Source of the DNA: Obrimoposthia wandeli
Taxonomy: Eukaryota
Reading direction: 5' to 3'
Length of the DNA: 64,000 bases
Assembly (NCBI GenBank): GCA_977020255.1
Contig: CDROCS010002126.1
Location: forward strand, 372,001 to 436,000
Position 1 is the stretch's first letter. Each line of letters begins with the position of its first letter. The translations under genes and the position numbers were made by a program. The notes beneath the pieces were generated by a model. It saw nothing but the letters and a program-made list of their open reading frames with translations. It searched no databases and was not told the origin of the DNA. Positions 1 to 51,990 of the stretch are shown piece after piece.

Positions 1-1986
1 CAAAAACCTTTTACAATGCTGATTTTAAACCCAGTTCAGTTTTAATATGACGTATATGTAATCAATTTAATGCACTGATTTAAGTGAGAAATGAGTTAGC
101 TTGTAGTCAAAACACATAAGAGGACTAGCTGTGAATTAACGCAAAATACTGATTTGCATAAGAGATAAAAATAAATAAAATATTTTAAATTAGAGGACTT
201 TTGTATGATAAATATTTATAATTATAGCAATGCAAGTATGAATGAAGCAAATTTTAAAATAATTTTCAAAAGGTTTAGTTGAGTCCTTTTACTAAAAAAT
301 GTCCTAAGAACGCTATATTCTCAACTAATTATTGTTTTAATGTTTATTATTATTTAAATATATTACAGTTATATTTTTTACCGTAAACAAAAGTCAAATT
401 CCACAAACACAATATATATTTATAAAGGTATACACGGCATTTTATAAACAAATCTTCTCAGTAGGATATTTCTGGTTTCTGATTACATACTTTCCCTTTC
501 ACTATTCAAACTTGCACTTTCTCAGCCATTCGATTCTCATGGGGAGGATTCCCCTTAATACTGAATTGATTCCTTTCTTGGACTCAAAAATTCTATTATT
601 TTAATTGAGCCTACATACTTGTGTCCTCTATCTACGTCTAACAGGCATAAAAAGGTATTCATTTATTCATTCAAAATTATCATTTAAATATCATTTTTGA
701 CAAGTTGATACTGACGGGGTCATTAGAGCTATAATAATTCCTGTGATGTTAGTAGGTAGATGTGGGACTTCTGGAACAAAGCCTCCTGAGGACAAGTTAA
801 GGTCACGATAAGGACAAAATGTAGGTCATGACCTCATGAGGTCATGACCTCCGAGAGGTCTTTGTCCTGAAAGACACACATCAAGTAGAGGGGTGTGCAT
901 CTTTCAGGACAAAGACATTTTGAGTCATACCCCCACGGGGAGGGGTCATGTCATCATGAGGTCAAGGTCATTTAAGATCATGATGAGGTCAAAACGATGA
1001 CTCATCCTATGACTAATCGATGACTCATCGATGACTCATCGATAACTCAATCCATGACTCATTTTCTACTTTTAGTAATATACTTTAAAACTATATATCT
1101 TTTTATCTAAAGGTTGGATTAACACGCGGTCTTCACCAAAAGACATCTCATGTGTGTGTGTGTGTTCAATCTTAAATTATATAATTTCTAATTTTTTAAA
1201 AACTATCTACTCATAAAAATAAGTATTAAATAATTTCTAAATTTATTTAAACTAAATTCAATTAAACTATCTACTTATAAAAAATAAGTATTATATAATT
1301 TGATACATATGTTTAAACCTTCGTGTAAGTCTTTAACAAAGACAGTCACGTACTGCATCTATATTGCAAATACTTGCAACTTTATGTAATCAATACTAAC
1401 AAGCCACGTACTACATTTATTTTTTTACATGTATGCATGTTAGTGTGTAACAAAGATAGTATTGTACTATATTTATTCTTTTACATCTGTGTAACAAAGA
1501 CAATCATGTACTGTGCTTCGGAGGTGGCAGGAAAACATAACAAATAAGACTTCTTCAACTTCTTTATTCATTGAGTTCTTCATCAAAATATTTCTAGTAA
1601 CATAGCATTATAAATCAATAACATTTTTAAATTAATTTATTACTAAGGTTTTTATATTACCAACTTGGTAAAACACAACAATTAAAATACATTAAAAATA
1701 CTCTAAAATATATTAAAATACTTTTACATAAAAATATGACATCCATTACCAGATCCATTACCCGCCCATCATCGTCATCTCACTGCCCACTATTGAATTT
1801 ATTTCTAAAAATATTTAATATATTTAATTCTTTCGGAGGTTCTTCAACATACTGCATCTATATTGTAAACACTTGCAACTTTATGTAATTACAAATAATT
1901 TCTAAATAAAGACAAGTATTTTTGAAACATCTATTCCTTAAAATCACAAAGGAGAGTAAAAATATATACATATACATTTAAAAAGT

Positions 1987-4900
1987 TTATACAATTTCGT
2001 CCGGGTATAAAAAGTGGCCATAGGCAACTGATTGATTTTTATCTACTCACTTGCGTTTATTATCGCTACTGCTTAAGGCAATTTTAATTAAGCTTACAGT
2101 AAAAGTTGATGATTTAGCGAGCTTATACATTGTTGTTGTACACGCTCGCTAACGCCACTCTCATAGACGGCCAGGTAATTAGAATGTCTAATACTCGTCT
2201 TTTGGAGACTAATACTCTTAGCTCTGATCTGAGATTCACCTTCTGTAGTCTCTGAGCTATATGATGTTGGACGTAAAAAAAATCCCTTGCCTATAGCTAA
2301 ATAATCCCTTGCAGTCATCTTTAAATTTGCCTATCGCTGTATTAAGCGTCGTATAAAGCGGATGGGTTTTTGGAAATTTCGAGGTATCCAACAGTCCATC
2401 AGTAATCATAGCAGGTAACAATGTTTCTTGAACATTTATATTATTGCACTTCAAGAAAAAATTATCAGTGTCACCCGCTATAATTCTAATGGCACAGTTA
2501 AATTGAGTTCGATATTTCTCCAACTGCTCAGATTGTAGCTCATAAATACGAAGTTTGCTTAAATCTAATACTGCCTGGCCCATGTAACTAGGACGATCCA
2601 AAACAATATTTTACTTATCCAGTAAAACTGCAATAAGGTCCGTATCGATTTCGATTATCCTACGATAGGTAACCAGCTTCTGTAGAGTTTTACAATTCCG
2701 GAGGTTAATTCTTTTCATTAGATTCTCAATGAGTTTTCCAAAAATAAGAATTCATCTTAAGTTTGTAGTAATCTCGCTCGAAATCTGTTGTAGCTGCAGC
2801 TCTTTTAAGATAATTTTCTTCAATATATTTTGAAAAAACATTAGTTTGTTCAAACTGTATTGCTCTGTATACAAAATCTACTTTAGCACCAAGTCTAACG
2901 TACATTTGTAGCAATCTAGAATGCACAACATAGTGTTTCTTAGGGTAATGTGTTAGTAATAATATTTCAGTCTTACATTCTGGTGGACGCTGTTTAATCG
3001 GAGCAAGGAAAGATCGTCGAATTTATTATGTAGCTCATTGGGAATGGATAAATCTATTTCCAATAAATGAGCGAAGCGACTACAGGATAAATCTACTGAT
3101 TTTAAGCTAGACATAATATTCCCCATCTCTAACCGATCATTCACCAAGGAAAAGTTACCACAACGTAAAAACTGGAACATTGCCCACCCGTACAAGTTAT
3201 TTACATCAATGTACAAAAGTTCAGTACCGTTGATGGTGTCCACCTTGTGTTTATTCACGAAGGTCATGCCCTACGAATCCCGGAGCGAAAGAGATGGTAC
3301 ATATCCGGATCCTGGATGAGCTCGACTCGTACAGGAGGAGCAGAAGAAGAAGAATCCAGGCGAAGCAGTGACTTGAATGCACTCGCGAAAGTCAGTCCTG
3401 GAAATAAAACATTTATTAAAATCATTACTTAGTGAAAATCATTACTTAGTGAAAAGTTACTTAATAAAAATTACTTGGTGAAAATTTACTTGGTGAAAAT
3501 TTAGTTGGTGAAAATTAATAAAATACAAACCAGGGATGGAGAAGAAATTGAGCGGCTCCAGTTCGTCGTCAGCAATGGCCTTGGTTCGGAATGCTGTAAA
3601 TACATCTGCTAGAAGGTAGACGTCCATCTTCATATAGACCAGCATATAGTCCCAGAGCGATGTGCAGCCGCTCTGAGTCCAGACCATCTTCGCCATCTCA
3701 TATTGAGCTGGCTTGATCTTCTCATCCCACTTTGGTGGTAAGCTAGTGATTGCATGAAGAGCAGTCTCTGATACTGCCATACGGCAAGATGCCCTTAGCG
3801 CTCACCAGATGTTGCGGAAAGACCGAATGTGTTAGAGGAGTCATATCCAGGTTATCCACAAGTATTTCAAGTCCGCTGTTCAAAAGTTGCAAGGAATCTT
3901 TAAAGCGAATACAGACTCCTGTAATCATGTGTGTACCCTGTTGTGGCTGCAACGGGAGACATGAGCATACCGGTCGAGATTGGAAGCTGAATCTGATGAT
4001 GTATTCCATGTGGCAGCAGCACAGCCCCAAAGTTCGAATAAACAGCAAAAGGCAGATAAATTGTTTTTGAAAAGTCCTTAAACTCAATATGCTTTTCTGT
4101 CAGCATTGAATAAAGCGTTGTATGATCTAAATTCATCCTACAGAGTGGAACGTGTTTGGCGTAACTTATTGCTTTCTGGAACCCATGCAGACACTTATGG
4201 CACCAAGTACACTGGATGCGATTAGATACACCTCTGTTCCTATAATTAAGAAGCCTATTGAGTTTACAAATATCAACATAATGGAAATTATCATTATTTT
4301 CTAAAAGGAGAATATTGATTGGCTTAGCGACCGGGTTTGTGGTTCTGTAAATTACATCCACATAGGGATATTTAAAGATATCCCTATTTGTTTGCATATT
4401 AGAAAACCTATTGAATGTAAATACGTTGATTGAGAGATATGGATTCTTTCTCTCAAATCGCGGTATAGTGCAGACGCATCGGCATCTCATTCTCGTCAAA
4501 AACTAATTGACTCAACAGGGCATCATATTGATTAACCCGATGAGGATTAGAGCGAAATACGTCGCGGAAAGGTACAGCTAAGATACTGTAAAGGAAACAA
4601 AAGGTGTTAGAGTTCTGCACATTGATAACGTAATGTGAGAGTGCTATTTCAGATGGATTAGGTATATAACAACTACCCTGGAGATAGTTCATTGTTGTTG
4701 TTTTAGTCACAACAAACGAAATCTCCAGGAAGCGGTTCACTACCCAAATACTGCTACTCTGGAAATAATTCTCAATCTTCTTATTGATCCCATCTACTCC
4801 TGCATCTATAAACCCATCATCCATGGGGAGCCCTCTATTGGAAAAATTCCAAGCACGTGTTTCTCCAATATTGGAAAATTCAACACGCACCCCGAATTGC

Positions 4901-5067
4901 ACCTTACAAATCGCAAACATGCTGTCTGTATCTCTTAAGCTAGTCAAAAGTGACTCGGTAACTTGTAAATAAATTACATCGTCATTAGAAACATCTAATG
5001 ACAATGTCTCAATCGTAGCCCGAAGACTAGTTTTTTGCTTAACGGCATCAACCCTGGGAGACTTCAC
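1987..5067 (-). pseudogene. POLB: Protein-primed family B DNA polymerase of Polinton A, multiply frameshifted
   Basis: Polinton PolB motifs occur in order across the ORF fragments: GSCYIP..VINVQN..CFLYSILA; IPRFERKN..INVF; PFAVYSNF; IRFKDS..KGILPY; YMKMDVYLLADVFTAFR; YIDVNNLYGWAM (motif A); YKLKMNSYFWKT (motif B); GDTDN (motif C); LRPTSYS; ALSSSDNKR..AYGH. A large in-gene deletion appears near 3990-4040. Confidence 0.95.
3398..3530 (-). other. Putative phase-1 spliceosomal intron inside Polinton PolB
   Basis: Minus strand reads ATC CCT G|gtttgtatttt...gttttatttccag|GA CTG ACT TTC GCG AGT GCA TTC AAG. Removing these 133 AT-rich bp restores FFSIPGLTFASAFK..VELIQDPDMYHLFRSGIR, matching the recalled Polinton consensus (PGLSWDAMLK..LELLTD.DMY...GIRGG). 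Confidence 0.78.
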
Positions 5068-5100
5068 AACAGAGCTACCTGAAGTGGATATAACACTTCT

Positions 5101-5560
5101 CTAATGGGTAGATGCTGGTAACAGCGCGGGAACCATATCAACTGTTGATGAAGGAGGCATAACTGGAAACACAGTAGTGGGTACAGCAGATGCAGGAGCA
5201 TAAATTGGTGCAGCAATTAGATAAGTAATTGGAGTAGATACTGGAGCAGCAATTTGCGCAGTAATTGGCGAAGACAAATAAGCAGCAACTGGAGCAGCAA
5301 CTGAATCTTGAGAAATGGTAGCAGGAGAAGCAGTCATATTACTGTGTTGTCTCTCTTAGAAGATAGCCTTCTTGCCACATTGCTGGAAATGGCGAAGATG
5401 GGTGCGATCACGCGCCATAAACTTCAACCAATCAATTTCCTCCGCGGAGAGACATACTGAACAGACGTAGAAGAGTTGTCCATTGAACTTCTGCCCAAGA
5501 AGCTCTTCATTTTCGAATCACATTCCTTGTGAATCTCTTCAAAACGAAGTTTTTATTCAT
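5101..5560 (-). pseudogene. Possible N-terminal extension of PolB (Cys/His motif region plus Ala/Pro/Thr-rich linker)
   Basis: Ala/Pro-rich ORF at 5101-5337. Upstream broken reading YVCSVCLS..RTHLRHFQQCGKK resembles a Zn-binding motif. Lies directly upstream of and co-oriented with PolB. Confidence 0.4.
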
Positions 5561-5738
5561 ATTGCAATTCTAGAAAGAAAAATAATAAATATAGAAATAT
5601 CAAGAAACTTACCATTTTCAATTTCGTTTATAATATAGAGTTATTTGTTGTTTGATGCTTGCTTATATACTATTTTCAAACTAGTATTAAACCAATAAGA
5701 TTCATTTATTATTTAAACCAATCAGAATTGAAAATAGT

Positions 5739-6170
5739 TTAGTGATTAATGTAAGTAGTTGATTTTTCATTAATATTTAAATAATCCAAACTAGCCGCAA
5801 AGCATTTCTTGTATGCACAATGCTCTCCTTGTTTAATATATGGACATTTGATATTTGATGGATTTAATCGTTTTAATGTTTTCGAGTAATTTATCACTCT
5901 AAATTCAGGAAAATATTTATTGATTGTCTTTATTTTAGCTTCATTATATTCATCCAAAACAAAGAAAATTGATTTGGATACATCACAACAACGTTTTATT
6001 TCCTCAGTTATTTCTTTTATCTTTAAATAACTATTACTATCAACTAGTTTTAGTCGATGGTAATGCTTAATGAGATATCTATTTATTTTTCTTGATTTTC
6101 TATCCATCATACTCCTTTTAAAGTTGCATTTTAAAAACATAATGTTAAGGATAGAAGATTGCATCCACAT
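5739..6170 (-). CDS. Polinton A ORF of unknown function (Lys-rich, C-terminal CxxxxxxxxCxxxxC)
   Basis: Intact 143-codon ORF between protease and PolB, co-oriented with the cluster. No recognised motif. Confidence 0.5.
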   Translation of the reverse strand: MWMQSSILNIMFLKCNFKRSMMDRKSRKINRYLIKHYHRLKLVDSNSYLKIKEITEEIKRCCDVSKSIFFVLDEYNEAKIKTINKYFPEFRVINYSKTLKRLNPSNIKCPYIKQGEHCAYKKCFAASLDYLNINEKSTTYINH

Positions 6171-6286
6171 CCATTATACATAGTTCCTTTATTACAAATT
6201 CAGTATTATTATCAATAAAAGCTTCAAAATCAATAAAATAAACAGACATTTTTTATACAAATAATTTTATTTGATATTATTTATAT

Positions 6287-6645
6287 CTATTGTTTATGCT
6301 TTAACCAAAGCAGACAGAGTCGTCTACATGACTGTGTTAAAACATTTTGATAATGTTTCTTACTAAAATGTACTTTCTTTCCAGAGTCAAGTACTGTATA
6401 TACTAATTTAGAAGGGTAATATATCCCATAGGGATCAAAAACAAAGATTTAATTTTCTTTAACATGTATTGCAATCCAATGTCCACCGCGCAAATTAGAT
6501 GAATGTGTATTGATTACATATCCACCTAGACGAGTCAAGAGGGGATATGATCAAGAATGTAGACTCCATTAAAATGCAAACCGAGTAGTTTTCTGCCGCT
6601 TTTTGTTATCTCGATCGAACTAGATTATATAATAATCAATTCATT
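6287..6645 (-). pseudogene. PRO: Adenain-like cysteine protease of Polinton A
   Basis: Manual translation: GYVINTHSSNLRGGHWIAIHVKEN*IFVFDPYG..YQNVLTQSCRRLCLLWL. This shows the HW, FD and Q..C catalytic-triad pattern, with an internal stop. Confidence 0.85.
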
Positions 6646-6704
6646 CAAACTGACTTAATTCATTTATATATTATTTTTTTTGTTTTTTCTTGTTTTCATT
6701 CTGT

Positions 6705-7899
6705 TTATACTAGTACTGTTCCTCCTTTGGTAATTTGAACCTCAGAATCAAATACTCCATAGATTATAATATTAGTAGGATGTTCAAGTGCTTTTGTAAA
6801 CTTGATTTCTACTTTCAAATTTCCCTGTTTAGGGATTTGAGCTTGATTAATATCGAAATCTGGAGAGAGAACAAATGGGAACAGTGAAATCAGTCATTGA
6901 AATACCAACATTAGCATCCTTATTCAAATGACCAAGATTTCTAATTAAAGATTGCACATAAGAAAACAAATAATCATTATTTTCAAAGTCATTCGTATAA
7001 GTTTCTTGATAATCGATATTTAGTGTAAATTTAATTAAACTCACATTCATAGGTCCAAATTGAGAAACCTCATTTTTAGACTCACTTCCATAGGTAGAAG
7101 TGTTTTGGAAAGCAATTAAAACAAAGTTTAGAAGTTGCATATCACCAAAAATCTGATCCTTGTAATAAGATAGTGCTCCCGTAGGGATAGCATGAGAAAC
7201 AAGATTAGTTTTTCTAATAGGATAACATGCATTTTGCTTCTCCAACCCTATTCGATGTGCAAGGAGTACAGATGGTTCCACCCTTACTCTATGAACCAAC
7301 AGTTTTGCCTCCGTAATCTCAATTGCTGCTTTAATAGTATCAGTGCAAACAACACTAAAACCTATTGGATTTCTCTTCATTCGAATATGTGCACTTTGGT
7401 TGCTTAAATAAATCCAAATAGAGACTCCCATAAAGTGACAATACTTTAGATTTCGCAATCGAAGCTTTTCTTATTTTTTCATCATCATCAAACTTAATTG
7501 CATCAAGATTAATCAATTTTGTATCATTACCGTAATTCAGAATTGTTTCAATCATTGCTTTATGGGTGTAAATAGTATTATTTCCCTCAACTTTCACATT
7601 ATTGAGACTGAGAATCACATCCTTGAAAAGAGTATGAAACATGAAATTAGCTGATTTGATATCTAAATCATCATCCAAATCACCTCCTTCTTCCTTTGTA
7701 ATTTTCAATTTAACAAGAAATAAACTATCATTCAAATCAAGATATTGAGTATTTTATCTATTTATATTGAATTCTAAATACGGTGAAGATGTCCTGTTAA
7801 TCGTATTTTTTGAAAAAATTATTCAAAACTAGCACTATCAACCACAACCTGAGGTATATGTTTATCGAATATACACAATTCAGTTTTAGCACAACTCAT
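6705..7899 (-). pseudogene. MCP: Double jelly-roll major capsid protein of Polinton A, frameshifted
   Basis: N-terminus MSCAKTELCIFDKHIPQ; LEFNI..YLDLNDSLFLVKLKIT; HTLFKDVILSLN; ITEAKLLVHRVRVEP; C-terminus QGNLKVEIKFTKALEHPTNIIIYGVFDSEVQI. Confidence 0.9.
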
Positions 7900-7985
7900 T
7901 ACTTAAAAATTGTTCCACCTAGTTTCAAACGTTTGTTTATACCTGATGCTTTAGATGTTTTCTTACGTTTATAACCACTTCCCTT

Positions 7986-8261
7986 TTAAGTTTTCTTTCT
8001 CAAAAATTCAGCTAGACTTGGTGAAATTTCATTCACCTGATCCAAGGCTGCATCCTTTAGTGTGGGAAGAAATTTCTCATCACCAGACAAGTATTTTGAT
8101 CCAACATTAGCAATAAATTTCCTGAGTCGCTTGAGTAGTGGGAAAGCAAACCGACCAAAAACTTTCATCCATCCTGATCCATACTGTTTTCCCACAAAAG
8201 AAGGCAAATCACCTCCTATCATGGGTTTACTATACGCATCGATTATACTTGAATCAATCAT
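7986..8261 (-). CDS. Small conserved Polinton virion/core-type protein (FxGxQxGxG motif)
   Basis: Intact ORF MIGGDLPSFVGKQYGSGWMKVFGRFAFPLLK between mCP and MCP. MIGG|D fits the adenain cleavage consensus (M/I/L)xGG|x. Confidence 0.7.
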   Translation of the reverse strand: MIDSSIIDAYSKPMIGGDLPSFVGKQYGSGWMKVFGRFAFPLLKRLRKFIANVGSKYLSGDEKFLPTLKDAALDQVNEISPSLAEFLRKKT

Positions 8262-9265
8262 AATTTACGAAAATGAACCGTTAAACTTGTTTTAGCTCCG
8301 TAAGCAAATGTAATTAATCTTCCAGAATCATTACGTATATTAACTCTAATATTGTTTATAAAAGAAGAACTCACTGGATTTTCAATTGGAATATGTATAA
8401 CATTTCCATACTTGTGCTTTTCCTGTTGAATCCAAATTGCTTTTATTAATGGAAGTTTAGTTCCTCCTACGAATATTGGTTCAGTAATACTTGTGTAAAT
8501 ATAAATTTGATTATATGCATTAGTTATTTTAGGAATAACCTTTGCTTTGAAAACTTTATTTTTATTTTCAAATTCATTTTCATCAAAACCGTTAATTGAG
8601 GTTAATGATTATCCATGACAACTTTACCATTATTTGATTATAACTGGAATTGAATCACTTTATTAACTAGTTTAAAGTTTTCAAATACATTTGGTAACAC
8701 TGTTTTAAAATGTTTACAATGCTTTCACTATCGGGAAAAATACAATCATTGGGAACTGAATATATTTTCCTCTCTTGTTTAGTGAATCTGCTTTTTATCT
8801 TGAATGTAATTATTGGATACTTCATATGTTTATCCATAATTCCCGAAACCACATGCTTTCTTTTATCAGGGTTAGTTGGAAATCCATATTGTTCCGCAAC
8901 AATCTCATCATTTAAAAACTATTTCAAAATTATCACCTTGTCCTATAATTTGAATTCTATTCTCTTTTTAAAAAAGATTGTGAAATCATCTCCTGCCTTA
9001 ATACGAGCCAAATCCATTTGACCCTTATCAAATAGTAAAGTCACGTCAGTTAACTTGTCAGCTTTTTATTGAGTAATATATTCAACCTCAGTTTCACTTT
9101 GAATATATAGAGGAGAGTAATTGAAAAAAAATCCGTAAGAGCAGCTTTTCAAGCACCTGGTAAATTGATTGAGCTTTGATAATCAATACTAAAAGTATTA
9201 GCAGTATTATTCGGCTGAGTTAATGGTGAACCATTACTTGATAATACAACATACATTGCATTCAT
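8258..9265 (-). pseudogene. mCP: Minor capsid (penton-like) protein of Polinton A
   Basis: N-terminus MNAMYVVLSSNGSPLTQPNNTANTFSIDYQSSINLPGA*KAALT; C-terminus IYTSITEPIFVGGTKLPL..NNIRVNIRNDSGRLITF..SLTVHFRKL. Contains stops and frameshifts. Confidence 0.85.
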
Positions 9266-9675
9266 TCTATTTGAGAAGCTAATATCCAACTAGGTTCAGT
9301 AAGTATATCCATGCCACTTAACTTGATATTGTTTATGCTTTCCTCTCCATTTTGTCTCTAAGATTTCTTGAATTCTATATACATTTGGTTTCTCAGGTAA
9401 GACTTGTAATTCCTCATGATAAAATTTACCCGTGATTACATTATTGCTCTCATCCTCAATGAAATACATTACCGGCACATGTTTATTATCAATTTTAGTT
9501 ATACAAAATACTTCATCACTCCAATTCTATTTGAAATTCTTTATAAAAGGAGAAGTACTAATTTTAAAAATACGTACATAATCACTAACTTTATACTTGG
9601 ATTTCTTTACAACTTGACTTTGGTTACGACGTTGCCAAATTTCCATAGGATTCTCATCTGTAACATCTATAATAA
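9262..9675 (-). pseudogene. INT: C-terminal part of the retroviral-like integrase with chromodomain, Polinton A
   Basis: KYKVSDYVRI..PFIKNFK*NWSDEVF..YFIEDESNNVITGKFYHEELQ..YRIQEILET..YQVKWHGYT-EPSWI. The catalytic core is missing (5' truncation). Confidence 0.88.
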
Positions 9676-11398: not shown

Positions 11399-13289
11399 AG
11401 TAGGTGGAAGGATGGAGTCTAAGCCACTTTACCCCCCCCCCCCTAAAGGATGTCACTCCATAAGGATGTCACTCCTTCGGTGACCCAACATATACCCTTA
11501 TGGTATGGCAAGACACCTTTTATGGTGTGACACCCTTATGGAGTGACACCCTTTAGGAGGGAGGCGGGAGGCGGGGAGGGGAGGAGAGGGGTAAAGTGGC
11601 TTAGACTCCATCCTTCCTTGATATACTACTATGGTCGTCCATAGTTTAAAGGGTCAAGTGGCTTAGTCTCCACCCATCTTTTTGTGATCTAGTCTCCACC
11701 CATCTTTTTGTGATCTAGTCTCCACCCTTCTTTTTGAGATATATCACTATGAAAGGGTCAAATGGCTTAGTCTCCACCCTTCTTTTTGAGATATACTACT
11801 ATGAAAGGGTCAAGTGGCTTAGTCTCCACCCTTCTTTTAGTGATCTAGTCTCCACCCTTCTTTTTGGCTAACTACTAATTCAAAGGATCAAGTGGCTTAG
11901 TCTCCACCCTTCTTTTTTGTGATCTAGTCCATAATGAAAATTTATGATAAAGTTCACTCTTAACAATTAAGAAATGTGGTTTTAAACACACACACATACA
12001 CTATTTTATGTGAAATTTATGATAAAGTTCACTCTTATCAATTAAGAAATGCGGTTTTTTAACACACACATACACTATTTTATGTGAAATTTAAACTAAA
12101 GTTCACTCTTATAAGTTAATAAATGTATTACGTAATCACACACATACTATTTTATGTGAAATTTAGATCAAAGTTTTTCCTAGGCTTTCACATTTATAGA
12201 ATTATGATAAAATTTCTTTAAATACTTCAATTATATATTAAAATAAAAAATAAAATAAGAAAGAAGTCAGAGAATAATACAAAATTAAACACATTTATTA
12301 TGTAATTTCATAATATCATCTTCAAACTTAAGTGAATAACATTTACAAAGTAAGAAAGTCCATTCTTTATACATTCTTTTCGTTTCAACGACTAAGTTAC
12401 AACGGAATTAATAGAAAATTAGTAAAAATATTAATTTATTTGAATATTTGAATGAGAGTTTGAATAAATGAGAGGTAGAATGAATGTAAATGAATAAAAT
12501 TATGCATGCAAGTATGAATGTCATTTACAAGTAAGAGTCTTAGCAAGTGAATGTAATTTAAAAATAAGAGTGTCGATAGTTTGATTGAATGCAAGTGTAA
12601 TTTAGACTATAAGTAAATTAAAATAGAGTTTTTGTTGAATAAATTATAGTTAGATTGAATGCAAGTATGACGAGCAAGTGATTGATAGTTTGAATTTTCA
12701 ATACAAGTAAGTGGGTTTAGCAAGTGAATGTAATTTTAAAAATAAGAGTGTCGATAGTTTGATTGAATGCAAGTGTAATTTAGACTATAAGTAAATTAAA
12801 ATATAGTTTTTGTTGAATAAATTATAGTTAGATTGAATGCAAGTATGACGAGCAAGTGATTGATAGTTTGAATTTTCAATACAAGTAAGTGGGTTTAGCA
12901 AGTGAATGTAATTTTTAAAAAATAAGAGTGTCGATAGTTTGATTGAATGCAAGTGTAATTTAGACTATAAGTAAATTAAAATAGAGATTTTGTTGAATAA
13001 ATTATAGTTAGATTGAATGCAAGTATGACGAGCAAGTGATTGATAGTATGAATTTCAATACAAGTAAGTGGGTTTAGCAAGTGAATGTAATTTTTTAAAA
13101 TAAGAGTGTCGATAGTTTGATTGAATGCAAGTGTAATTTAGACTATAAGTAAATTAAAATAGAGATTTTGTTGAATAAATTATAGTTAGATTGAATGCAA
13201 GTATGACGAGCAAGTGATTGATAGTTTGAATTTTCAATACAAGTAAGTGGGTTTAGCAAGTGAATGTAATTTTTAAAAATAAGAGTGTC
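11399..13289 (+). repeat. Left terminal inverted repeat of element B
   Basis: Reverse complement of 24626-26752 apart from a ~48-bp terminal-hairpin deletion and one fewer ~179-bp unit. Contains a terminal palindrome, repeated AAGTGGCTTAGTCTCCACCC motifs and ~65-bp repeats near 11940-12170. Confidence 0.95.
12543..13289 (+). repeat. ~179-bp tandem repeat in left TIR (4 full units plus partial)
   Basis: GCAAGTGAATGTAATT..AAAATAAGAGTGTCGATAG recurs at about 12543, 12720, 12898, 13077 and 13255. Confidence 0.95.
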
Positions 13290-13344
13290 AATGTTATATA
13301 ATAGTTTAATAAAAGTTAATCATTGAATACAAGAACACAAATTC

Positions 13345-16300
13345 TAATAACTTACAACATATTAAAGTGAATATATGCATAAATATATTATGTTTACAAG
13401 TCAATTTATTGTAAACGATAGTAAACTATCAATTACTTTTTATATAATGTAATATTATAGTAATAACTTACAATATATTAAATTGAAAATATGCAAATTA
13501 TATTATGTTTACAAGTCAATTTATTGATCAAATCATTAAAATTATGATTAATAAGTAAATTACTTGAAGATTTGGTTGTAAATTATATTAAAGTATTAAC
13601 TTACAACATTTAAACTGAATATATACAACAACAAATAAATATTGTAGTTTACAAGTAAATTACTTGAAGTTTTTGTTGTAAATTATATTAAAGTAATAAC
13701 TTACAACATATTAAATTGAAAAATATACCAAAATAAATTATGTTTACAAGTCAATTTATTGTACAAAACATTAAACTTATGTTTATTAAGTAAACTACTT
13801 GAAGTTTTTGTTGAAAATTATAATAAAGTAATAACTTACAACATATTAAAGTGAATATATGCATAAATTTATTGTAAACGATAGTAAACTATCAATTACT
13901 TTTTTATGTAATGTAATATTATAGTAATAACTTACAACGTGTTAAATTGAAAATATGCAAATTATATTATGTTTACAAGTCAATTTATTGATCAAATCAT
14001 TAATATTATGATTAATAAGTAAACTACTTGAAGTTTTTATTGAAAATTATATTAAAGTAATAACTTACAACATTTTAAACTGAATATATACAACAACAAA
14101 TAAATATTGTAGTTTACAAGTAAATTACTTGAAGTTTTTGTTGTAAATTATATTAAAGTAATAACTTACAACATTTTAAAGTGAATATATGCATAAATAT
14201 ATTATGTTTACAAGTCAATTTATTGTAAACGATAGTAAACTATCAATTACTTTTTATATAATGTAATATTATAGTAATAACTTACAATATATTAAATTGA
14301 AAATATGCAAATTATATTATGTTTACAAGTCAATTTATTGATCAAATCATTAAAATTATGATTAATAAGTAAATTACTTGAAGAATTGGTTGTAAATTAT
14401 ATTAAAGTATTATTAACTGAACAACATATATAATAAGTAAATGAAGTTTTTGTTGTAAATTATATTAAAGTAATAACCAACATATTAAACTATTATGTTT
14501 ACAAGTCAATTTATTGTACAAAACATTAAAATTATGATTAATAAGTAAATTACTTGAAGATTTGGTTGTAAATTATATTAAAGTATTAACTTACAACATA
14601 TTAAAGTGAATATATGCATAAATTTATTGTAAACGATAGTAAACTATCAATTACTTTTTTATGTAATGTAATATTATAGTAATAACTTACAATATATTAA
14701 ATTGAAAATATGCAAATTATATTATGTTTACAAGTCAATTTATTGATCAAATCATTAAAATTATGATTAATAAGTAAATTACTTGAAGTCAAGTAAAGTT
14801 ACTTGAAGTTAAAATTATATTAAAGTAATAACTTACAACATTTTAAAGTGAATATATGCATAAATATATTATGTTTACAAGTCAATTTATTGTAAACGAC
14901 AGTAAACTATGAATTACTTTTTATGTAATGAAATATTACAGTATTAACTTACAACGTGTTAAATTGAAAATATATAAATTATATTATGTTTACAAGTCAA
15001 TTTATTGATCAAATCATTAAAATTATGATTAATAAGTAAATTACTTGAAGATTTGGTTGTAAATTATATTAAAGTATTAACTTACAACATTTTAAACTGA
15101 ATATATACAACAACAAATAAATATTGTAGTTTACAAGTAAATTACTTGAAGTTTTTTGTTGTAAATTATATTAAAGTAATAACTTACAACATATTAAATT
15201 GAAAATATACCAAAATAAATTATGTTTACAAGTCAATTTATTGTACAAAACATTAAACTTATGATTAAGTAAACTACTTGAAGTTTTTTTTTTGTTGAAA
15301 ATTATATTAAAGTAATAACTTACAACATTTTAAAGTGAATATATGCATAAATATATTATGTGTAAACGATAGTAAACTATCAATTACGTTTTTATGTAAT
15401 GTAATATTATAGTAATAACTTACAACGTGTTAAATTGAAAATATGCAAATTATATTATGTTTACAAGTCAATTTATTGATCAATCATTAATATTATGATT
15501 AATAAGTAAACTACTTGAAGTTTTTGTTGAAAATTATATTAAAGTAATAACTTACAACATATTAAAGTGAATATATGCATAAAAATATTATGTTTACAAG
15601 TCAATTTATTGTAAACGACAGTAAACTATCAATTACGTTTTATGTAAATTATATTAAAGTAATGTAATATTATAGTAATAACTTACAATATATTAAATTG
15701 AAAATATATCAAAATTATATTATGTTTACAAGTCAATTTATTGTACAAAACATTAAACTTATGTTTAATAAGTAAACTACTTGAAGTTTTTGTTGAAAAT
15801 TATATTAAAGTAATAACTTACAACATATTAAAGTGAATATATGCATAAATATATTATGTTTACAAGTCAATTTATTGTAAACGATAGTAAACTACTTGAA
15901 GTTTTTGTTGTAAATTATATTAAAGTAATAACTTACAACATATTAAATTGAAAATATATCAAAATAAATTATGTTTACAAGTCAATTTATTGTACAAAAC
16001 ATTAAAATTATGATTAATAAGTAAATTACTTGAAGAATTGGTTGTAAATTATATTAAAGTATTAACTTACAACATTTTAAACGGAATATATACAACAACA
16101 AATAAATATTGTAGTTTACAAGTAAATTACTTGAAGTTTTTGTTGTAAATTATATTAAAGTAATAACTTACAACATTTTAAATTGAATATATACATAAAT
16201 ATATTATGTTTACAAGTCAATTTATTGTAAACGACAGTAAACTATGAATTACTTTTTTATGTAATGAAATATTACAGTATTAACTTACAACGTGTTAAAT

Positions 16301-19300
16301 TGAAAATATGCAAATTATATTATGTTTACAAGTCAATTTATTGATCAAATCATTAAAATTATGATTAATAAGTAAATTACTTGAAGATTTGGTTGTAAAT
16401 TATATTAAAGTAATAACTTACAACATTTTAAACTGAATATATACAACAACAAATAAATATTGTAGTTTACAAGTAAATTACTTGAAGTTTTTTGTTGTAA
16501 ATTATATTAAAGTAATAACTTACAACATATTAAATATACCAAATATACCAAAATAAATTATGTTTACAAGTCAATTTATTGTACAAAACATTAAACTTAT
16601 GTTTAATAAGTAAACTACTTGAAGTTTTTGTTGTAAATTATATTAAAGTAATAACTTACAACATATTAAATTGAAAATATACCAAAATAAATTATGTTTA
16701 CAAGTCAATTTATTGTACAAAACATTAAACTTATGTTTAATAAGTAAACTACTTGAAGTTTTTGTTGAAAATTATATTAAAGTAATAACTTACAACATTT
16801 TAAAGTGAATATATGCATAAATATATTATGTTTACAAGTCAATTTATTGTAAACGATAGTAAACTATGTTTAATTACTACTTTTTTATGTAATGTAATAT
16901 TATAGTAATAACTTACAACATATTAAATTGAAAATATGCAAATTATATTATGTTTACAAGTCAATTTATTGATCAAATCATTAATATTATGATTAATAAG
17001 TAAACTACTTGAAGTTTTTGTTGAAAATTATATTAAAGTAATAACTTACAACATTTTAAACTGAATATATACAACAACAAATAAATATTGTAGTTTACAA
17101 GTAAACTACTTGAAGTTTTTGTTGTAAATTATATTAAAGTAATAACTTACAACATATTAAATTGAAAATATATCAAAATAAATTATGTTTACAAGTCAAT
17201 TTATTGTACAAAACATTAAACTTATGTTTAATAAGTAAACTACTTGAAGTTTTTGTTGAAAATTATATGAAAGTAATAACTTACAACCTTTTAAAGTGCA
17301 TATATGTTTAGATATATTATGTTTACAAGTCAATTTATTGTAAACGACAGTAAACTATGAATTACTTTTTATGTAATGAAATATTATAGTATTAACTTAC
17401 AACGTGTTAAATTGAAAATATGCAAAAATAAATTATGTTTACAAGTCAATTTATTGTACAAAACATTAAACCTATGTTTAATAAGTAAACTACTTGAAGT
17501 TTTGTTGTAAATTATATTAAAGTAATAACTTACAACATATAAATATATATACAACAACAAATAAATATTGTAGTTTACAAGTAATTACTTGAAGTTTTTG
17601 TTGTAAATTATATTAAAGTAATAACTTACAACATATTAAATTGAAAATATATCAAAATAAATTATGTTTACAAGTCAATTTATTGTACAAAACATTAAAC
17701 TTATGTTTAATAAGTAAACTACTTGAAGTTTTTGTTGAAAATTATATGAAAGTAATAACTTACAACATTTTAAAGTGAATATATGTATAAATATATTATG
17801 TTTACAAGTCAATTTATTGTAAACGACAGTAAACTATGAATTACCTTTTATGTAATGTAATATTATAGTAATAACTTACAACGTGTTAAATTGAAAATAT
17901 GCAAATTATATTATGTTTACAAGTCAATTTATTGTACAAAACATTAAACTTATGTTTAATAAGTAAACTACTTGAAGTTTTTGTTGTAAATTATATTAAA
18001 GTAATAACTTACAACATATAAATATATATACAACAACAAATAAATATTGTAGTTTACAAGTAAATTACTTGAAGTTTTTGTTGTAAATTATATTAAAGTA
18101 ATAACTTACAACATATTAAATTGAAAATATATCAAAATAAATTATGTTTACAAGTCAATTTATTGTACAAAACATTAAACTTATGTTTAATAAGTAAACT
18201 ACTTGAAGTTTTTGTTGAAAATTATATGAAAGTAATAACTTACAACATTTTAAAGTGAATATATGTATAAATATATTATGTTTACAAGTCAATTTATTGT
18301 AAACGACAGTAAACTATGAATTACTTTTTATGTAATGTAATATTATAGTAATAACTTACAACGTGTTAAATTGAAAATATGCAAATTATATTATGTTTAC
18401 AAGTCAATTTATTGATCAATCATTAATATTATGATTAATAAGTAAACTACTTGAAGTTTTTGTTGAAAATTATATTAAAGTAATAACTTACAACATTTTA
18501 AACTGAATATATACAACAACAAATAAATATTGTAGTTTCCAAGTAATTACTTGAAGTTTTTGTTGTAAATTATATTAAAGAAATAACTTACAACATATTA
18601 AATTGAAAATATATCAAAATAAATTATGTTTACAAGTCAATTTATTGTACAAAACATTAAACTTATGTTTAATAAGTAAACTACTTGAAGTTTTTGTTGT
18701 AAATTATATTAAAGTAATAACTTACAACATATAAATATATATACAACAACAAATAAATATTGTAGTTTCCAAGTAATTACTTGAAGTTTTTGTTGTAAAT
18801 TATATTAAAGTAATAACTTACAACATATTAAATTGAAAATATATCAAAATAAATTATGTTTACAAGTCAATTTATTGTACAAAACATTAAACTTATGATT
18901 AATAAGTAAACTACTTGAAGTTTTTGTTGAAAATTATATTAAAGTAATAAGTTACAACATATTAAAGTTAATATATGCATAAATATATTATGTTTACAAG
19001 TCAATTTATTGTACAAAACATTAAACTTATGTTTAATAAGTAAACTACTTGAAGTTTTTGTTGTAAATTATATTAAAGTAATAACTTAAAACATATTAAA
19101 TTGAAAAATATATCAAAATAAATTATGTTTACAAGTCAATTTATTGTACAAAACATTAAACTTATGTTTAATAAGTTTTTGTTGAAAATTATATTAAAGT
19201 AATAACTTACAACATTTTAAACTAAATATATACAACAACAAATAAATATTGTAGTTTACAAGTAAATTACTTGAAGTTTTTATTGTAAATTATATTAAAG

Positions 19301-22300
19301 TAATAACTTACAACATATTAAATTGAAAATATATCAAAAATAAATTATGTTTACAAGTCAATTTATTGTACAAAACATTAAACTTATGTTTAATAAGTAA
19401 ACTACTTGAAGTTTTTGTTGAAAATTATATGAAAGTAATAACTTACAACATTTTAAAGTGAATATATGTATAAATATATTATGTTTACAAGTCAATTTAT
19501 TGTAAACGACAGTAAACTATGAATTACTTTTTATGTAATGTAATATTATAGTAATAACTTACAACGTGTTAAATTGAAAATATGCAAATTATATTATGTT
19601 TACAAGTCAATTTATTGATCAATCATTAATATTATGATTAATAAGTAAACTACTTGAAGTTTTTGTTGAAAATTATATTAAAGTAATAACTTACAACATA
19701 TAAATATATATACAACAACAAATAAATATTGTAGTTTCCAAGTAATTACTTGAAGTTTTTGTTGTAAATTATATTAAAGAAATAACTTACAACATATTAA
19801 ATTGAAAATATATCAAAATAAATTATGTTTACAAGTCAATTTATTGTACAAAACATTAAACTTATGTTTAATAAGTAAACTACTTGAAGTTTTTGTTGTA
19901 AATTATATTAAAGTAATAACTTACAACATATTAAATTGAAAATATATCAAAAATAAATTATGTTTACAAGTCAATTTATTGTACAAAACATTAAACTTAT
20001 GATTAATAAGTAAACTACTTGAAGTTTTTGTTGAAAATTATATTAAAGTAATAAGTTACAACATATTAAAGTTAATATATGCATAAATATATTATGTTTA
20101 CAAGTCAATTTATTGTACAAAACATTAAACTTATGTTTAATAAGTAAACTACTTGAAGTTTTTGTTGAAAATTATATGAAAGTAATAACTTACAACATTT
20201 TAAAGTGAATATATGTATAAATATATTATGTTTACAAGTCAATTTATTGTAAACGACAGTAAACTATGAATTACTTTTTATGTAATGTAATATTATAGTA
20301 ATAACTTACAACGTGTTAAATTGAAAATATGCAAATTATATTATGTTTACAAGTCAATTTATTGTACAAAACATTAAACTTATGTTTAATAAGTAAACTA
20401 CTTGAAGTTTTTGTTGTAAATTATATTAAAGTAATAACTTACAACATATAAATATATATACAACAACAAATAAATATTGTAGTTTACAAGTAAATTACTT
20501 GAAGTTTTTGTTGTAAATTATATTAAAGTAATAACTTACAACATATTAAATTGAAAATATATCAAAATAAATTATGTTTACAAGTCAATTTATTGTACAA
20601 AACATTAAACTTATGTTTAATAAGTAAACTACTTGAAGTTTTTGTTGAAAATTATATGAAAGTAATAACTTACAACATTTTAAAGTGAATATATGTATAA
20701 ATATATTATGTTTACAAGTCAATTTATTGTAAACGACAGTAAACTATGAATTACTTTTTATGTAATGTAATATTATAGTAATAACTTACAACGTGTTAAA
20801 TTGAAAATATGCAAATTATATTATGTTTACAAGTCAATTTATTGATCAATCATTAATATTATGATTAATAAGTAAACTACTTGAAGTTTTTGTTGAAAAT
20901 TATATTAAAGTAATAACTTACAACATTTTAAACTGAATATATACAACAACAAATAAATATTGTAGTTTCCAAGTAATTACTTGAAGTTTTTGTTGTAAAT
21001 TATATTAAAGTAATAACTTACAACATATTAAATTGAAAATATATCAAAATAAATTATGTTTACAAGTCAATTTATTGTACAAAACATTAAACTTATGATT
21101 AATAAGTAAACTACTTGAAGTTTTTGTTGAAAATTATATTAAAGTAATAAGTTACAACATATTAAAGTTAATATATGCATAAATATATTATGTTTACAAG
21201 TCAATTTATTGTACAAAACATTAAACTTATGTTTAATAAGTAAACTACTTGAAGTTTTTTGTTGTAAATTATATTAAAGTAATAACTTAAAACATATTAA
21301 ATTGAAAAATATATCAAAATAAATTATGTTTACAAGTCAATTTATTGTACAAAACATTAAACTTATGTTTAATAAGTAAACTACTCGAAGTTTTTGTTGA
21401 AAATTATATTAAAGTAATAACTTACAACATTTAAACTAAATATATACAACAACAAATAAATATTGTAGTTTACAAGTAAATTACTTGAAGTTTTTGTTGT
21501 AAATTATATTAAAGTAATAACTTACAACATATTAAATTGAAAATATATCAAAAATAAATTATGTTTACAAGTCAATTTATTGTACAAAACATTAAACTTA
21601 TGTTTAATAAGTAAACTACTTGAAGTTTTTGTTGAAAATTATATGAAAGTAATAACTTACAACATTTTAAAGTGAATATATGTATAAATATATTATGTTT
21701 ACAAGTCAATTTATTGTAAACGACAGTAAACTATGAATTACTTTTTATGTAATGTAATATTATAGTAATAACTTACAACGTGTTAAATTGAAAATATGCA
21801 AATTATATTATGTTTACAAGTCAATTTATTGATCAATCATTAATATTATGATTAATAAGTAAACTACTTGAAGTTTTGTTGAAAATTATATTAAAGTAAT
21901 AACTTACAACATATAAATATATATACAACAACAAATAAATATTGTAGTTTCCAAGTAATTACTTGAAAAGTTTTGTTGTAAATTATATTAAAGAAAACTA
22001 ACTTACAACATATTAAATTGAAAATATATCAAAATAAATTATGTTTACAAGTCAATTTATTGTACAAAACATTAAACTTATGTTTAATAAGTAAACTACT
22101 TGAAGTTTTTGTTGTAAATTATATTAAAGTAATAACTTACAACATATTAAATTGAAAATATATCAAAAATAAATTATGTTTACAAGTCAATTTATTGTAC
22201 AAAACATTAAACTTATGATTAATAAGTAAACTACTTGAAGTTTTTGTTGAAAATTATATTAAAGTAATAAGTTACAACATATTAAAGTTAATATATGCAT

Positions 22301-24330
22301 AAATATATTATGTTTACAAGTCAATTTATTGTACAAAACATTAAACTTATGTTTAATAAGTAAACTACTTGAAGTTTTTGTTGTAAATTATATTAAAGTA
22401 ATAACTTACAACATATTAAATTGAAAAATATATCAAAATAAATTATGTTTACAAGTCAATTTATTGTACAAAACATTAAACTTATGTTTAATAAGTAAAC
22501 TACTTGAAGTTTTGTTGTAAATTATATTAAAGTAATAACTTACAACATATTAAATTGAAAATATATCAAAATAAATTATGTTTACAAGTCAATTTATTGT
22601 ACAAAACATTAAACTTATGTTTAATAAGTAAACTACTTGAAGTTTTTGTTGTAAATTATATTAAAGTAATAACTTACAAAATATTAAATTGAAAATATAT
22701 CAAAATAAATTATGTTTACAAGTCAATTTATTGTACAAAACATTAAACTTATGTTTAATAAGTAAACTACTTGAAGTTTTTGTTGAAAATTATATTAAAG
22801 TAATAACTTACAACATTTTAAACTAAATATATACAACAACAAAAAAATATTGTAGTTTACAAGTAAATTACTTGAAGTTTTTGTTGTAAATTATATTAAA
22901 GTAATAACTTACAACATATTAAAGTTAATATATGCATAAATATATTATGTTTACAAGTCAATTTATTGTACAAAACAATAAACTTATGATTATTAAGTAA
23001 ACTACTTGAAGTTTTTGTTGAAAATTATATTAAAGTAATAACTTACAACATTTTAAACTAAATATATACAACAACAAATAAATATTGTAGTTTACAAGTA
23101 AATTACTTGAAGTTTTTGTTGTAAATTATATTAAAGTAATAACTTACAACATATTAAATTGAAAATATATCAAAATAAATTATGTTTACAAGTCAATTTA
23201 TTGTACAAAACATTAAACTTATGTTTAATAAGTAAACTACTTGAAGTTTTTGTTGAAAATTATATTAAAGTAATAACTTACAACATTTTAAACGGAATAT
23301 ATACAACAACAAATAAATATTGTAGTTTACAAGTAAATTACTTGAAGTTTTGTTGTAAATTATATTAAAGTAATAACTTACAACATATTAAATTGAAAAT
23401 ATATCAAAATAAATTATGTTTACAAGTCAATTTATTGTACAAAACATTAAACTTATGTTTAATAAGTAAACTACTTGAAGTTTTTTGTTGTAAATTATAT
23501 TAAAGTAATAAGTTACAACATATTAAAGTTAATATATGCATAAATATATTATGTTTACAAGTCAATTTATTGTACAAAACAATAAACTTATGATTATTAA
23601 GTAAACTACTTGAAGTTTTTGTTGTAAATTATATTAAAGTAATAACTTAAAACATATTAAATTGAAAAATATATCAAAATAAATTATGTTTACAAGTCAA
23701 TTTATTGTACAAAACATTAAACTTATGTTTAATAAGTAAACTACTCGAAGTTTTTGTTGAAAATTATATTAAAGTAATAACTTACAACATTTTAAACTAA
23801 ATATATACAACAACAAATAAATATTGTAGTTTACAAGTAAATTACTTGAAGTTTTTATTGTAAATTATATTAAAGTAATAACTTACAACATATTAAATTG
23901 AAAATATATCAAAAATAAATTATGTTTACAAGTCAATTTATTGTACAAAACAATAAACTTATGATTATTAAGTAAACTACTTGAAGTTTTTGTTGAAAAT
24001 TATAGTAAAGTAATAACTTACAACATATTAAAGTGAATATATGCATAAATATATTATGTTTACAAGTCAATTTATTGTAAACGATAGTAAACTATCAATT
24101 ACTTTTTTTATATAATGTAATATTATAGTAATAACTTACAATATATTAAATTGAAAATATGCAAATTATATTATGTTTACAAGTCAATTTATTGATCAAA
24201 TCATTAATATTATGATTAATAAGTAAACTACTTGAAGTTTTTGTTGAAAATTATATTAAAGTAATAACTTACAACATTTTAAACTAAATATATACAACAA
24301 CAAATAAATATTGTAGTTTACAAGTAAATT
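13345..24330. repeat. ~11-kb AT-rich mosaic satellite forming the core of element B
   Basis: About four related ~100-135-bp unit types share AAGTAATAACTTACAAC and TGTTTACAAGTCAATTTATTG. 480-bp higher-order periodicity (TAAACGACAG at 17820/18300 and 20250/20730). Confidence 0.97.
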
Positions 24331-24625
24331 TTCGAATGTCTAGTAAACAAATTTAAATAACTCGAAAAACATTTTCTATTCGAAATAATAAACTTAATAG
24401 TCTTTATATTTGAAATTTATGTTATATGCAGTGGGCGGGGTACAGCAACTAACTTTATAATTAAAATATTTTTTTTTAGTTTAAGGTTAAAATCACTTGA
24501 TAAAAACCACAATAATGTGATAAAGAATATTATTTAACATATAAAATGAATTTTTGAAGAAATAAATTGAATATTCATATTATATTAAACGGACAATGGC
24601 AAAAAAAATATCAAGTAATTTAAAA

Positions 24626-26752
24626 AATCAAACTATCGACACTCTTATTTTAAAATTACATTCACTTGCTAAACCCACTTACTTGTATTGAAAATTCAAA
24701 CTATCAATCACTTGCTCGTCATACTTGCATTCAATCTAACTATAATTTATTCAACAAAAACTCTATTTTAATTTACTTATAGTCTAAATTACACTTGCAT
24801 TCAATCAAACTATCGACACTCTTATTTTTAAAAATTACATTCACTTGCTAAACCCACTTACTTGTATTGAAAATTCAAACTATCAATCACTTGCTCGTCA
24901 TACTTGCATTCAATCTAACTATAATTTATTCAACAAAAACTCTATTTTAATTTACTTATAGTCTAAATTACACTTGCATTCAATCAAACTATCGACACTC
25001 TTATTTTAAAAAATTACATTCACTTGCTAAACCCACTTACTTGTATTGAAATTCATACTATCAATCACTTGCTCGTCATACTTGCATTCAATCTAACTAT
25101 AATTTATTCAACAAAATCTCTATTTTAATTTACTTATAGTCTAAATTACACTTGCATTCAATCAAACTATCGACACTCTTATTTTTAAAAAATTACATTC
25201 ACTTGCTAAACCCACTTACTTGTATTGAAAATTCAAACTATCAATCACTTGCTCGTCATACTTGCATTCAATCTAACTATAATTTATTCAACAAAAACTC
25301 TATTTTTAATTTACTTATAGTCTAAATTACACTTGCATTCAATCAAACTATCGACACTCTTATTTTTTAAAATTACATTCACTTGCTAAACCCACTTACT
25401 TGTATTGAAAATTCAAACTATCAATCACTTGCTCGTCATACTTGCATTCAATCTAACTATAATTTATTCAACAAAAACTCTATTTTAATTTACTTATAGT
25501 CTAAATTACACTTGCATTCAATCAAACTATCGACACTCTTATTTTTAAATTACATTCACTTGCTAAGACTCTTACTTGTAAATGACATTCATACTTGCAT
25601 GCATAATTTTATTCATTTACATTCATTCTACCTCTCATTTATTCAAACTCTCATTCAAATATTCAAATAAATTAATATTTTTACTAATTTTCTATTAATT
25701 CCGTTGTAACTTAGTCGTTGAAACGAAAAGAATGTATAAAGAATGGACTTTCTTACTTTGTAAATGTTATTCACTTAAGTTTGAAGATGATATTATGAAA
25801 TTACATAATAAATGTGTTTAATTTTGTATTATTCTCTGACTTCTTTCTTATTTTATTTTTTTATTTTAATATATAATTGAAGTATTTAAAGAAATTTTAT
25901 CATAATTCTATAAATGTGAAAGCCTAGGAAAAAACTTTGATCTAAATTTCACATAAAATAGTATATGTGTGATTACCTAATACATTTATTAACTTATAAG
26001 AGTGAACTTTAGTTTAAATTTCACATAAAATAGTGTATGTGTGTGTTAAAAAACCGCATTTCTTAATTGATAAGAGTGAACTTTATCATAAATTTCACAT
26101 AAAATAGTGTATGTGTGTGTGTTTAAAACCACATTTCTTAATTGTTAAGAGTGAACTTTATCATAAATTTTCATTATGGACTAGATCACAAAAAAGAAGG
26201 GTGGAGACTAAGCCACTTGATCCTTTGAATTAGTAGTTAGCCAAAAAGAAGGGTGGAGACTAGATCACTAAAAGAAGGGTGGAGACTAAGCCACTTGACC
26301 CTTTCATAGTAGTATATCTCAAAAAGAAGGGTGGAGACTAAGCCATTTGACCCTTTCATAGTGATATATCTCAAAAAGAAGGGTGGAGACTAGATCACAA
26401 AAAGATGGGTGGAGACTAGATCACAAAAAGATGGGTGGAGACTAAGCCACTTGACCCTTTAAACTATGGACGACCATAGTAGTATATCAAGGAAGGATGG
26501 AGTCTAAGCCACTTTACCCCTCTCCTCCCCTCCCCGCCTCCCGCCTCCCTCCTAAAGGGTGTCACTCCATAAGGGTGTCACACCATAAAAGGTGTCTTGC
26601 CATACCATAAGGGTATATGTTGGGTCACCGAAGGTGAGGCAACATATACCCTTATGGTGTGGCAAGACACCTTTTATGATGTGACATCCTTATGGAGTGA
26701 CATCCTTTAGGGGGGGGGGTAAAGTGGCTTAGACTCCATCCTTCCACCTACT
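24626..26752 (-). repeat. Right terminal inverted repeat of element B
   Basis: Inverted copy of 11399-13289, with 5 full ~179-bp units (24661-25560) and a complete ~260-bp terminal palindrome (26491-26745). Confidence 0.95.
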
Positions 26753-51554: not shown

Positions 51555-51827
51555 CTTAAACCTACATTACTTAGTTTTATTTAAAATCCTAGAGATCAAA
51601 CAGTTGTTGATTTTGTGGCTAGACAGGCATTTCCCCCAAATAAGATCTTTCTTGTTGATTCATTCCATGATGCTGCTAAACAAGTACTTGGGTATATATT
51701 TATTGACTTTACACAAGCTTGCCCAGATGATTTACGTGTTTTAACAGACATATTTAATTTTACGGAAGTAACTGTTAATAAACAAATAGAGAACAATTAT
51801 AAAAAATTAATTTGCAATGCCTTTTAA
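51555..51827 (+). pseudogene. ATP: C-terminal fragment of the Polinton packaging ATPase
   Basis: LNLHYLVLFK-NPRD..VARQAFP..FLVDSFHDAAKQVLGYIFIDFTQACPDDLRVLTDIF. The P-loop part is deleted. Confidence 0.85.
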
Positions 51828-51990
51828 GAAGTTGATATTGAAACGTAAACGTAAAGTAAAATATAAGAAATCATAAAAAAGAATCATTAAGAAAAATGAA
51901 GTGATTAAATTAATCAAATCTGTAGTTAAAAATAAAAGAAAACTTAAATGGCTTCGAATATAAACAATATTCAAATTGAACTTTTTTTAA

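Follow-up and report, generated by a model that had tools for sequence, protein, structure and literature searches.

Animal Polintons or Mavericks (polintoviruses, proposed adintoviruses) carry a protein-primed DNA polymerase (pPolB, PF03175 with an EndoVII-like PF02945), an rve integrase, an A32-type ATPase, a C5 protease and capsid-like genes, together with AGTAG terminal inverted repeats (TIRs) and a 6-bp duplication, and the elements described here likewise comprise all of these. In the relevant part of PMC8097293, intact vertebrate Mavericks are described with intronless ORFs, and the intron passage of bioRxiv 10.1101/2022.07.12.499685 reports for a nematode Maverick intronless core genes and introns in cargo genes only. 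These parts of both sources agree with the first-pass annotation of the present DNA, which held that core Polinton genes are usually described as intronless. In contrast to the vertebrate and nematode elements, the polymerase gene analysed here contains a fixed insert, read as an intron, under long-term selection. The elements are of the known Polinton kind and not a new kind of element; the fixed pPolB intron is the difference. Intronless core genes are a reported tendency and not a defining rule, and the elements here mark a variant. Polinton surveys, as described in the pertinent part of PMC8097293, score elements as intact if their core genes form unbroken frames. Since unbroken core frames are required there, a clade like the present one, with thousands of copies in a single genome, would be scored as having a broken polymerase.

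Spliceosomal introns in Polinton-like elements have been found in dinoflagellates, where introners in Maverick/Polinton-like elements are mostly read as secondary insertions of active families after integration (relevant passages of PMC11957031). Group I introns occur in cryptophyte Polinton-like viruses, according to the part of PMC12220804 concerned. In contrast to the dinoflagellate introners, the present insert occupies one site and is inherited through element replication, the interiors are unrelated, and a limited search gave no sign of a mobile family.

A chlorovirus PolB has a spliceosomal intron, and the polymerase mRNA of adenoviruses is spliced. The intron sections of PMC12768974 describe spliceosomal introns as frequent in mirusviruses and also name pandoraviruses and some chloroviruses as carriers. 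Like the intron proposed here, these are host-spliced GT-AG introns in essential genes, which are read there as a ratchet tying the virus to the nucleus. The differences are that those viruses belong to other viral phyla, and that mirusviruses have many introns, some with homing endonucleases (same sections of PMC12768974). A literature search yielded no paper describing a fixed spliceosomal intron in the pPolB of a Polinton; the original Polinton papers (Kapitonov and Jurka 2006, Pritham 2007), Repbase entries and the supplements of a preprint that reports, in its relevant part, a Maverick expansion in Dugesia (bioRxiv 10.64898/2025.12.11.693146) may annotate one. The intron passages of PMC10748475, PMC8502044, PMC11296320, PMC11131425 and bioRxiv 10.64898/2026.07.28.741278 contain nothing on a pPolB intron, and the relevant part of PMC6431247 nothing on Polinton introns.

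The window Polinton and its insert

The window, i.e. the whole analysed stretch of 64,000 nt, contains a Polinton which spans 751-9670, keeps one terminal end and ends inside the integrase. Its features, and one host splice site for comparison, are as follows:

751-1401, no strand: remains of a terminal inverted repeat, start AGTAGG
1990-3397, minus: pPolB exon 2, which encodes the polymerase part (about 475 aa where the frame is open) and is broken in the window copy
3398-3530, minus: 133-nt phase-1 GT-AG intron (putatively spliceosomal), splitting the Gly codon of the pPolB PG(L/M/F) motif; basis: sequence, homolog and lineage comparison
3398-3410, minus: T-rich tract and 3' splice site ending CCAG; the letters at positions -1 to -12 agree with those of the window in 70-75 of the 75 other rows
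3425-3516, no strand: interior of the intron, with a 15-nt unit present about 6 times, the number of copies differing between elements (repeat inspection, family-A comparison)
3525-3530, minus: 5' splice site GTTTGT (non-GTRAG donor), found in 71 of 76 located family-A rows
3531-5560, minus: pPolB exon 1, which encodes the N-terminal region with an EndoVII-like zinc finger and the exonuclease part and is broken in the window copy; 5' end set by eye
5748-6252, minus: 170-aa element ORF, without Pfam match
6290-6654, minus: adenovirus-type cysteine protease (PF00770, under cut-off)
6708-7902, minus: major-capsid-like gene (double jelly-roll lead)
7902-8237, minus: 121-aa element ORF, without Pfam match
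8261-9289, minus: candidate minor capsid gene; its Atlas neighbours are Preplasmiviricota proteins
9302-9670, minus: 3' part of an rve integrase; the element is cut off here, without ATPase and second TIR
61330-61335, plus: 5' splice site GTTTGT of the VGLUT-like SLC17 gene of the host, directly behind exon 61222-61329 and listed for comparison

The label of 8261-9289, a probable minor capsid gene, was given by gene position. In the window, pPolB is split into 8 tblastn pieces in shifting frames with 6 stops within them. Since these other frameshifts and stops are present, the insert is not the sole break of this copy, which is a dead, truncated member of family A. Among 17 window ORFs searched against Pfam, only the host transporter scored above cut-off.

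Fuller copies elsewhere comprise ATPase, rve integrase, protease, two capsid-like genes and pPolB, all on one strand. PF03175 was found above cut-off in both pPolB exons and the integrase (PF00665, E 5e-14) in a family-A copy, while the packaging ATPase (PF04665, E 1e-4) and the protease (PF00770, E 7e-4) lay just below their cut-offs. The capsid-like genes gave no Pfam match; by Atlas features they came to 0.98 with a cluster in which 30% of the members carry PF21738 (DJR-like), with recognition values below threshold, and to 0.97 with Preplasmiviricota clusters. AGTAG ends and a 6-bp target duplication could be determined in four of seven candidate elements, 13-17 kb long. Each of the genes for ATPase, integrase, protease and capsid-like proteins forms one frame in young copies; pPolB carries the intron. 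Family-A elements also hold a dual-specificity phosphatase gene (PF00782, E 4e-13; L062:9314-10000, minus strand).

The genome (1.35 Gb) is AT-rich, and the window contains further elements. A 15-kb element at 11399-26752 with inverted ends of about 1.8 kb (99% identical, start AGTAGG) and an AT-rich satellite core of about 10 kb is probably a non-autonomous Polinton derivative. The VGLUT-like SLC17 transporter gene (35690-63760, plus strand) comprises at least 7 exons, and its named best matches are all flatworms (49-73%). Within one of its introns lies a fragment of a second, more distant Polinton (51556-54007, plus strand; ATPase, integrase, minor-capsid-like).

On the minus strand, the 133 nt of the insert at 3398-3530 show a GC content of 21%, compared to about 42% in the flanking DNA, start with GTTTGT and end with TTTATTTCCAG. 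The upstream pPolB frame stops at ...NFFSIP plus one base and the downstream frame restarts with two bases plus LTFASAF..., resulting in a Gly codon split in phase 1. The earlier description of an AT-rich, internally repetitive 133-bp GT..AG segment in the Gly codon of PGL is borne out in coordinates, ends, phase and a repeat of about 6 x 15 nt. An inverted repeat was not found within the 133 nt. Removal of the insert had also been claimed to restore the frame and a PGLT/SF...ELI.D.DMY...GIRGG consensus; 102 of 120 long continuous homologs, which are intron-free by choice because they were selected for length, read P-G-(L/M/F) without a gap at the projected site, and the flanks lie edge to edge when aligned separately. 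The site falls between profile positions 160 and 200 of PF03175 (matched parts 7-160 and 200-391), presumably after Exo III and before a YxGG-type motif.

The donor GTTTGT had further been said to be used by the host gene at 61330. This use is real, following the phase-1 exon 61222-61329, but since the four other readable host donors (GTGAGA, GTGAGG, GTGAGA and GTCAGT) differ, GTTTGT being the only one of its kind among five, the shared hexamer by itself says little.

The insert in family A and in six further lineages

The best 30 DNA matches of family A all contain the insert, with lengths of 122-147 nt. A protein search with exon 2, which is blind to the insert, gave 38,518 first-look candidates, and an open frame of more than 508 aa was absent in all 150 of them that were scored. 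For 76 of 80 fetched family-A loci, chosen like the other copies by similarity or intact exons and not at random, the insert was located, in 74 distinct places, with GT in 72 and AG in 70. Two of the six exceptions are anchor offsets: one locus (L008) reads GC..AG, and in the other (L019) the AG lies two bases on. The lengths range from 98 to 612 nt (51 values) and are distributed 22/24/28 modulo 3. In 11 places, at least 400 open codons before and at least 450 after the insert surround lengths of 135-612 nt, 7 of which are not divisible by three. In 76 of 76 rows of family A and 19 of 19 of family B, and thus in every insert, the frame of exon 1 runs into a stop.

The old family-A interior gave matches at the intron site only in the nine regions searched. 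The long introns of young family-A copies (200-612 nt; L051, L046 and others) include at least one copy of a unit of about 110 bp which belongs to the inner end of the TIR of the element itself; the homologous TIR piece lies at 1334-1401 of the window.

Six further lineages showed an insert at the same site, with unrelated interiors and lengths of 43-162 nt. Exon 2 of family B is 76% identical to family A at the amino acid level. In 19 of 20 family-B loci the insert was located, always as GT..AG with 45-46 nt and a sequence unlike that of A, and both exons are open in 8; the exon-1 frame of 786-806 aa ends at the same motif. Forty loci picked for other variants of the exon-end-plus-donor motif revealed lineages C (76-77 nt), D (110-148 nt), E (133-162 nt) and G (147 nt) and a variant of B (43-49 nt). 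Exon 2 was located here for 29 of 41 donor matches, with an AG end in 26 of these 29 and a length of 0 in none. Lineage H has an insert of 133 nt, GTAAAT..CCCAG. The donors are mostly non-consensus (GTTTGT, GTTAGA, GTTAGT). Compared to shuffles, the interiors gave z values of -2.3 to +2.6 in 20 between-lineage pairs and 11.3 within A.

Site, phase and GT/AG ends are the same in all seven lineages. The comparison with other PolB copies that the first-pass annotation had proposed thus finds a common position with conserved GT/AG and a variable interior in family A as well as in six other lineages, and with 74 distinct family-A places the insert is not unique to the dead window copy. In 6 of 6 representatives, C/T make up 11-15 of the last 18 bases, and all end in YAG; since the DNA is AT-rich, this pyrimidine tract adds weak support. 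Because each G of the ends can be read as a 2-bp duplication in the Gly codon, the T of GT and the A of AG alone are independent of the register. Multiplication of the per-lineage chance values results in 2e-5 for T and A alone, which is only a rough guide because the lineages are related. A short GG-centred repeat is common to both intron ends; the context at the site is CAG|GT in family B and mixed in intronless relatives.

The exon-end-plus-donor motif was found in 3,593 places, compared to 10 for a control, a count which takes in a few mutated intronless copies (1 of 12 loci of the intronless family fits the motif). The clade's uninterrupted junction motif gave 0 matches in the genome. A broader junction motif gave 28. 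Ten of these were fetched, and all proved to come from intronless lineages other than the clade: 7 are 86-98% identical to intronless families, and 3 represent a degraded lineage with at most 47% to A or B.

Selection on the exons and history of the insert

Both exons evolved under purifying selection. Among the 21 pairs of seven representatives, dN/dS of exon 2 was 0.08-0.16 in the 6 computable pairs, the rest being saturated at synonymous sites. For exon 1, values of 0.05-0.24 were determined in 12 pairs, some on only 40 codons, and eight within-family pairs showed 0.14-0.59.

In a quick tree without bootstrap, all 23 intron-bearing rows formed one clade against 32 others (SH-aLRT 100), the lineage-C row being short and badly placed, and in a second quick tree the 6 of 6 intron-bearing rows again formed one clade. 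The same genome contains intronless pPolB families (L225-L236) with open frames of 1,186-1,253 aa. These families share about 56-59% identity with exon 2 of the intron-bearing lineages and appear as weak sister of the intron-bearing clade (SH-aLRT 84). All 12 loci of the intronless family in this genome are continuous at the site, and no intronless member of the intron-bearing clade was found in the loci and motif searches. Among metagenome loci, 27 of 49 were scored as continuous at the site, and most others were off-site or crossed by one tblastn piece; one (L198) has a frame change about 8-20 residues behind the site.

Since the relatives outside the clade are continuous at the site, the insert represents a gain. 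This agrees with the intron gain in a virus-like replication gene proposed in the first-pass annotation, now with GT/AG at the same site in seven lineages. A single gain of the intron, in the common ancestor of a large Polinton clade of this host, is likely. The simplest history comprises one gain on the clade stem, no loss observed, and separate gains in relatives. Three metagenome relatives without the clade's intron show two other GT-AG phase-1 inserts of 43-44 nt at shared sites in the N-terminal half of pPolB (L169:718-760 and 1133-1176, L172:735-777, L175:571-614), which are likely independent intron gains.

Proposed splicing and alternative explanations

Taken from comparison, the insert is very probably a major-type spliceosomal intron, which would be removed by the host spliceosome and make the clade dependent on it. 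The element would be transcribed in the nucleus by host RNA polymerase II, and the two exons (about 800 and 475 codons) would be joined by splicing in one mRNA, giving a polymerase of about 1,270 aa, similar to the intronless neighbours with 1,186-1,253 aa. Since the site lies between the exonuclease and polymerase parts, unspliced RNA could yield only the N-terminal half. Because Polintons copy themselves as DNA, the intron would be passed on and be hard to lose, without an easy loss route. Its interior is nearly free: the length has drifted between 43 and 612 nt, and young family-A copies have taken up pieces of their own terminal repeats.

The position between the two halves of PF03175 would also suit a split gene with the insert as intergenic spacer, whose stop would end the exonuclease half, while the polymerase half would start at its own ATG. 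An in-frame ATG is in fact present near the 3' end of the insert in 73 of 76 family-A rows, with AATAAA nearby. However, this ATG derives from a repeated unit, and variants with 4 T and 5 T have a different ATG in frame. None of the 19 family-B inserts contains such an ATG, and none precedes exon 2 in the displayed open frames of D, E and H copies. The first Met of family-B exon 2 is located 36 residues in, behind the conserved LTFASAFKSLL. Since the 45-nt insert of family B has an in-frame stop and no ATG, a split gene is disfavoured, and a spacer gives no reason why seven lineages should have GT and AG precisely at this codon position; altogether we consider it very improbable. Conserved intronic polyadenylation was rejected as well, since the AATAAA of family A is absent from the B insert.

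Even less probable is a neutral or disabling insertion (a small transposon or repeat expansion) in dead or non-autonomous elements moved by the intronless families. Several observations would fit: the window copy is dead, the interior is repetitive, intronless families with open frames of 1,186-1,253 aa exist in the same genome, and family B often occurs in rearranged two-polymerase elements. In contrast, the exons before and after the insert show dN/dS values well under 1 over branches so long that synonymous sites became saturated, and they stay open around frame-breaking inserts. A transposon is also at odds with an insert that has no inverted repeat and an old family-A interior confined to the intron site in the nine regions searched. 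These last two observations also bear on an introner or MITE, for which terminal inverted repeats and many near-identical copies at unrelated sites would be expected; an old introner origin would be invisible by now.

A removal or bypass without the spliceosome, by self-splicing, a ribosomal hop or frameshift, recalls the group I introns reported in Polinton-like viruses of protists (relevant part of PMC12220804) and is very improbable too, since no Rfam intron family matched, the insert RNA folds worse than 194 of 200 shuffles (z +1.8), and inserts can be as short as 43-45 nt. A fixed frameshift is ruled out because the insert lengths fall in all three frames. For a group I or II intron, 43-45 nt are far too short.

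Contigs of four runs (kind unrecorded, one sample) compared with 2200-5200 showed no joint at the intron ends among the 15 listed of 123, which speaks neither for nor against splicing. A protein more than 60% identical to exon 2, e.g. the spliced product of a related host, was found neither in the longer-protein search nor among the best 150 of 8,398 representatives. When family-B exon 1 was used to look for proteins that stop directly behind the motif, none of 72 new proteins was a clear case at the same site, and an IMG/VR scan gave 80 pattern matches with no relative among them.

As a tentative and rather doubtful idea, the intron could act as a control switch. The weak donor between the two halves would let host splicing choose between a truncated product and the full polymerase, setting when and in which cells the genome's most abundant Polinton clade replicates, and would tie the clade to hosts whose spliceosome reads the intron. 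Polinton pPolBs are reported, in the passage of PMC11161782 concerned, to carry the terminal protein at the N-terminus. More generally, a virus-like element can apparently acquire an intron of host type in its replication gene and remain successful through a long divergence. Since intron-bearing and intronless families share one genome and relatives gained other introns elsewhere, the cost, the origin and a possible regulatory use of a new intron are testable with ordinary RNA data.

Two arrangements were observed in addition. In one of them two pPolB genes lie head to head, the first of family B and the second of family B, D or H (G000 C997, C928 and C3973; L086, L091, L092 and neighbours); one such two-pPolB element comprises 13.4 kb with TIRs and a 6-bp duplication, and the family-B search gave many inverted match pairs a few kb apart. 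In two lineage-C copies (L118, L122), another Polinton-type end (AGTAGG...) is inserted in or directly behind the intron.
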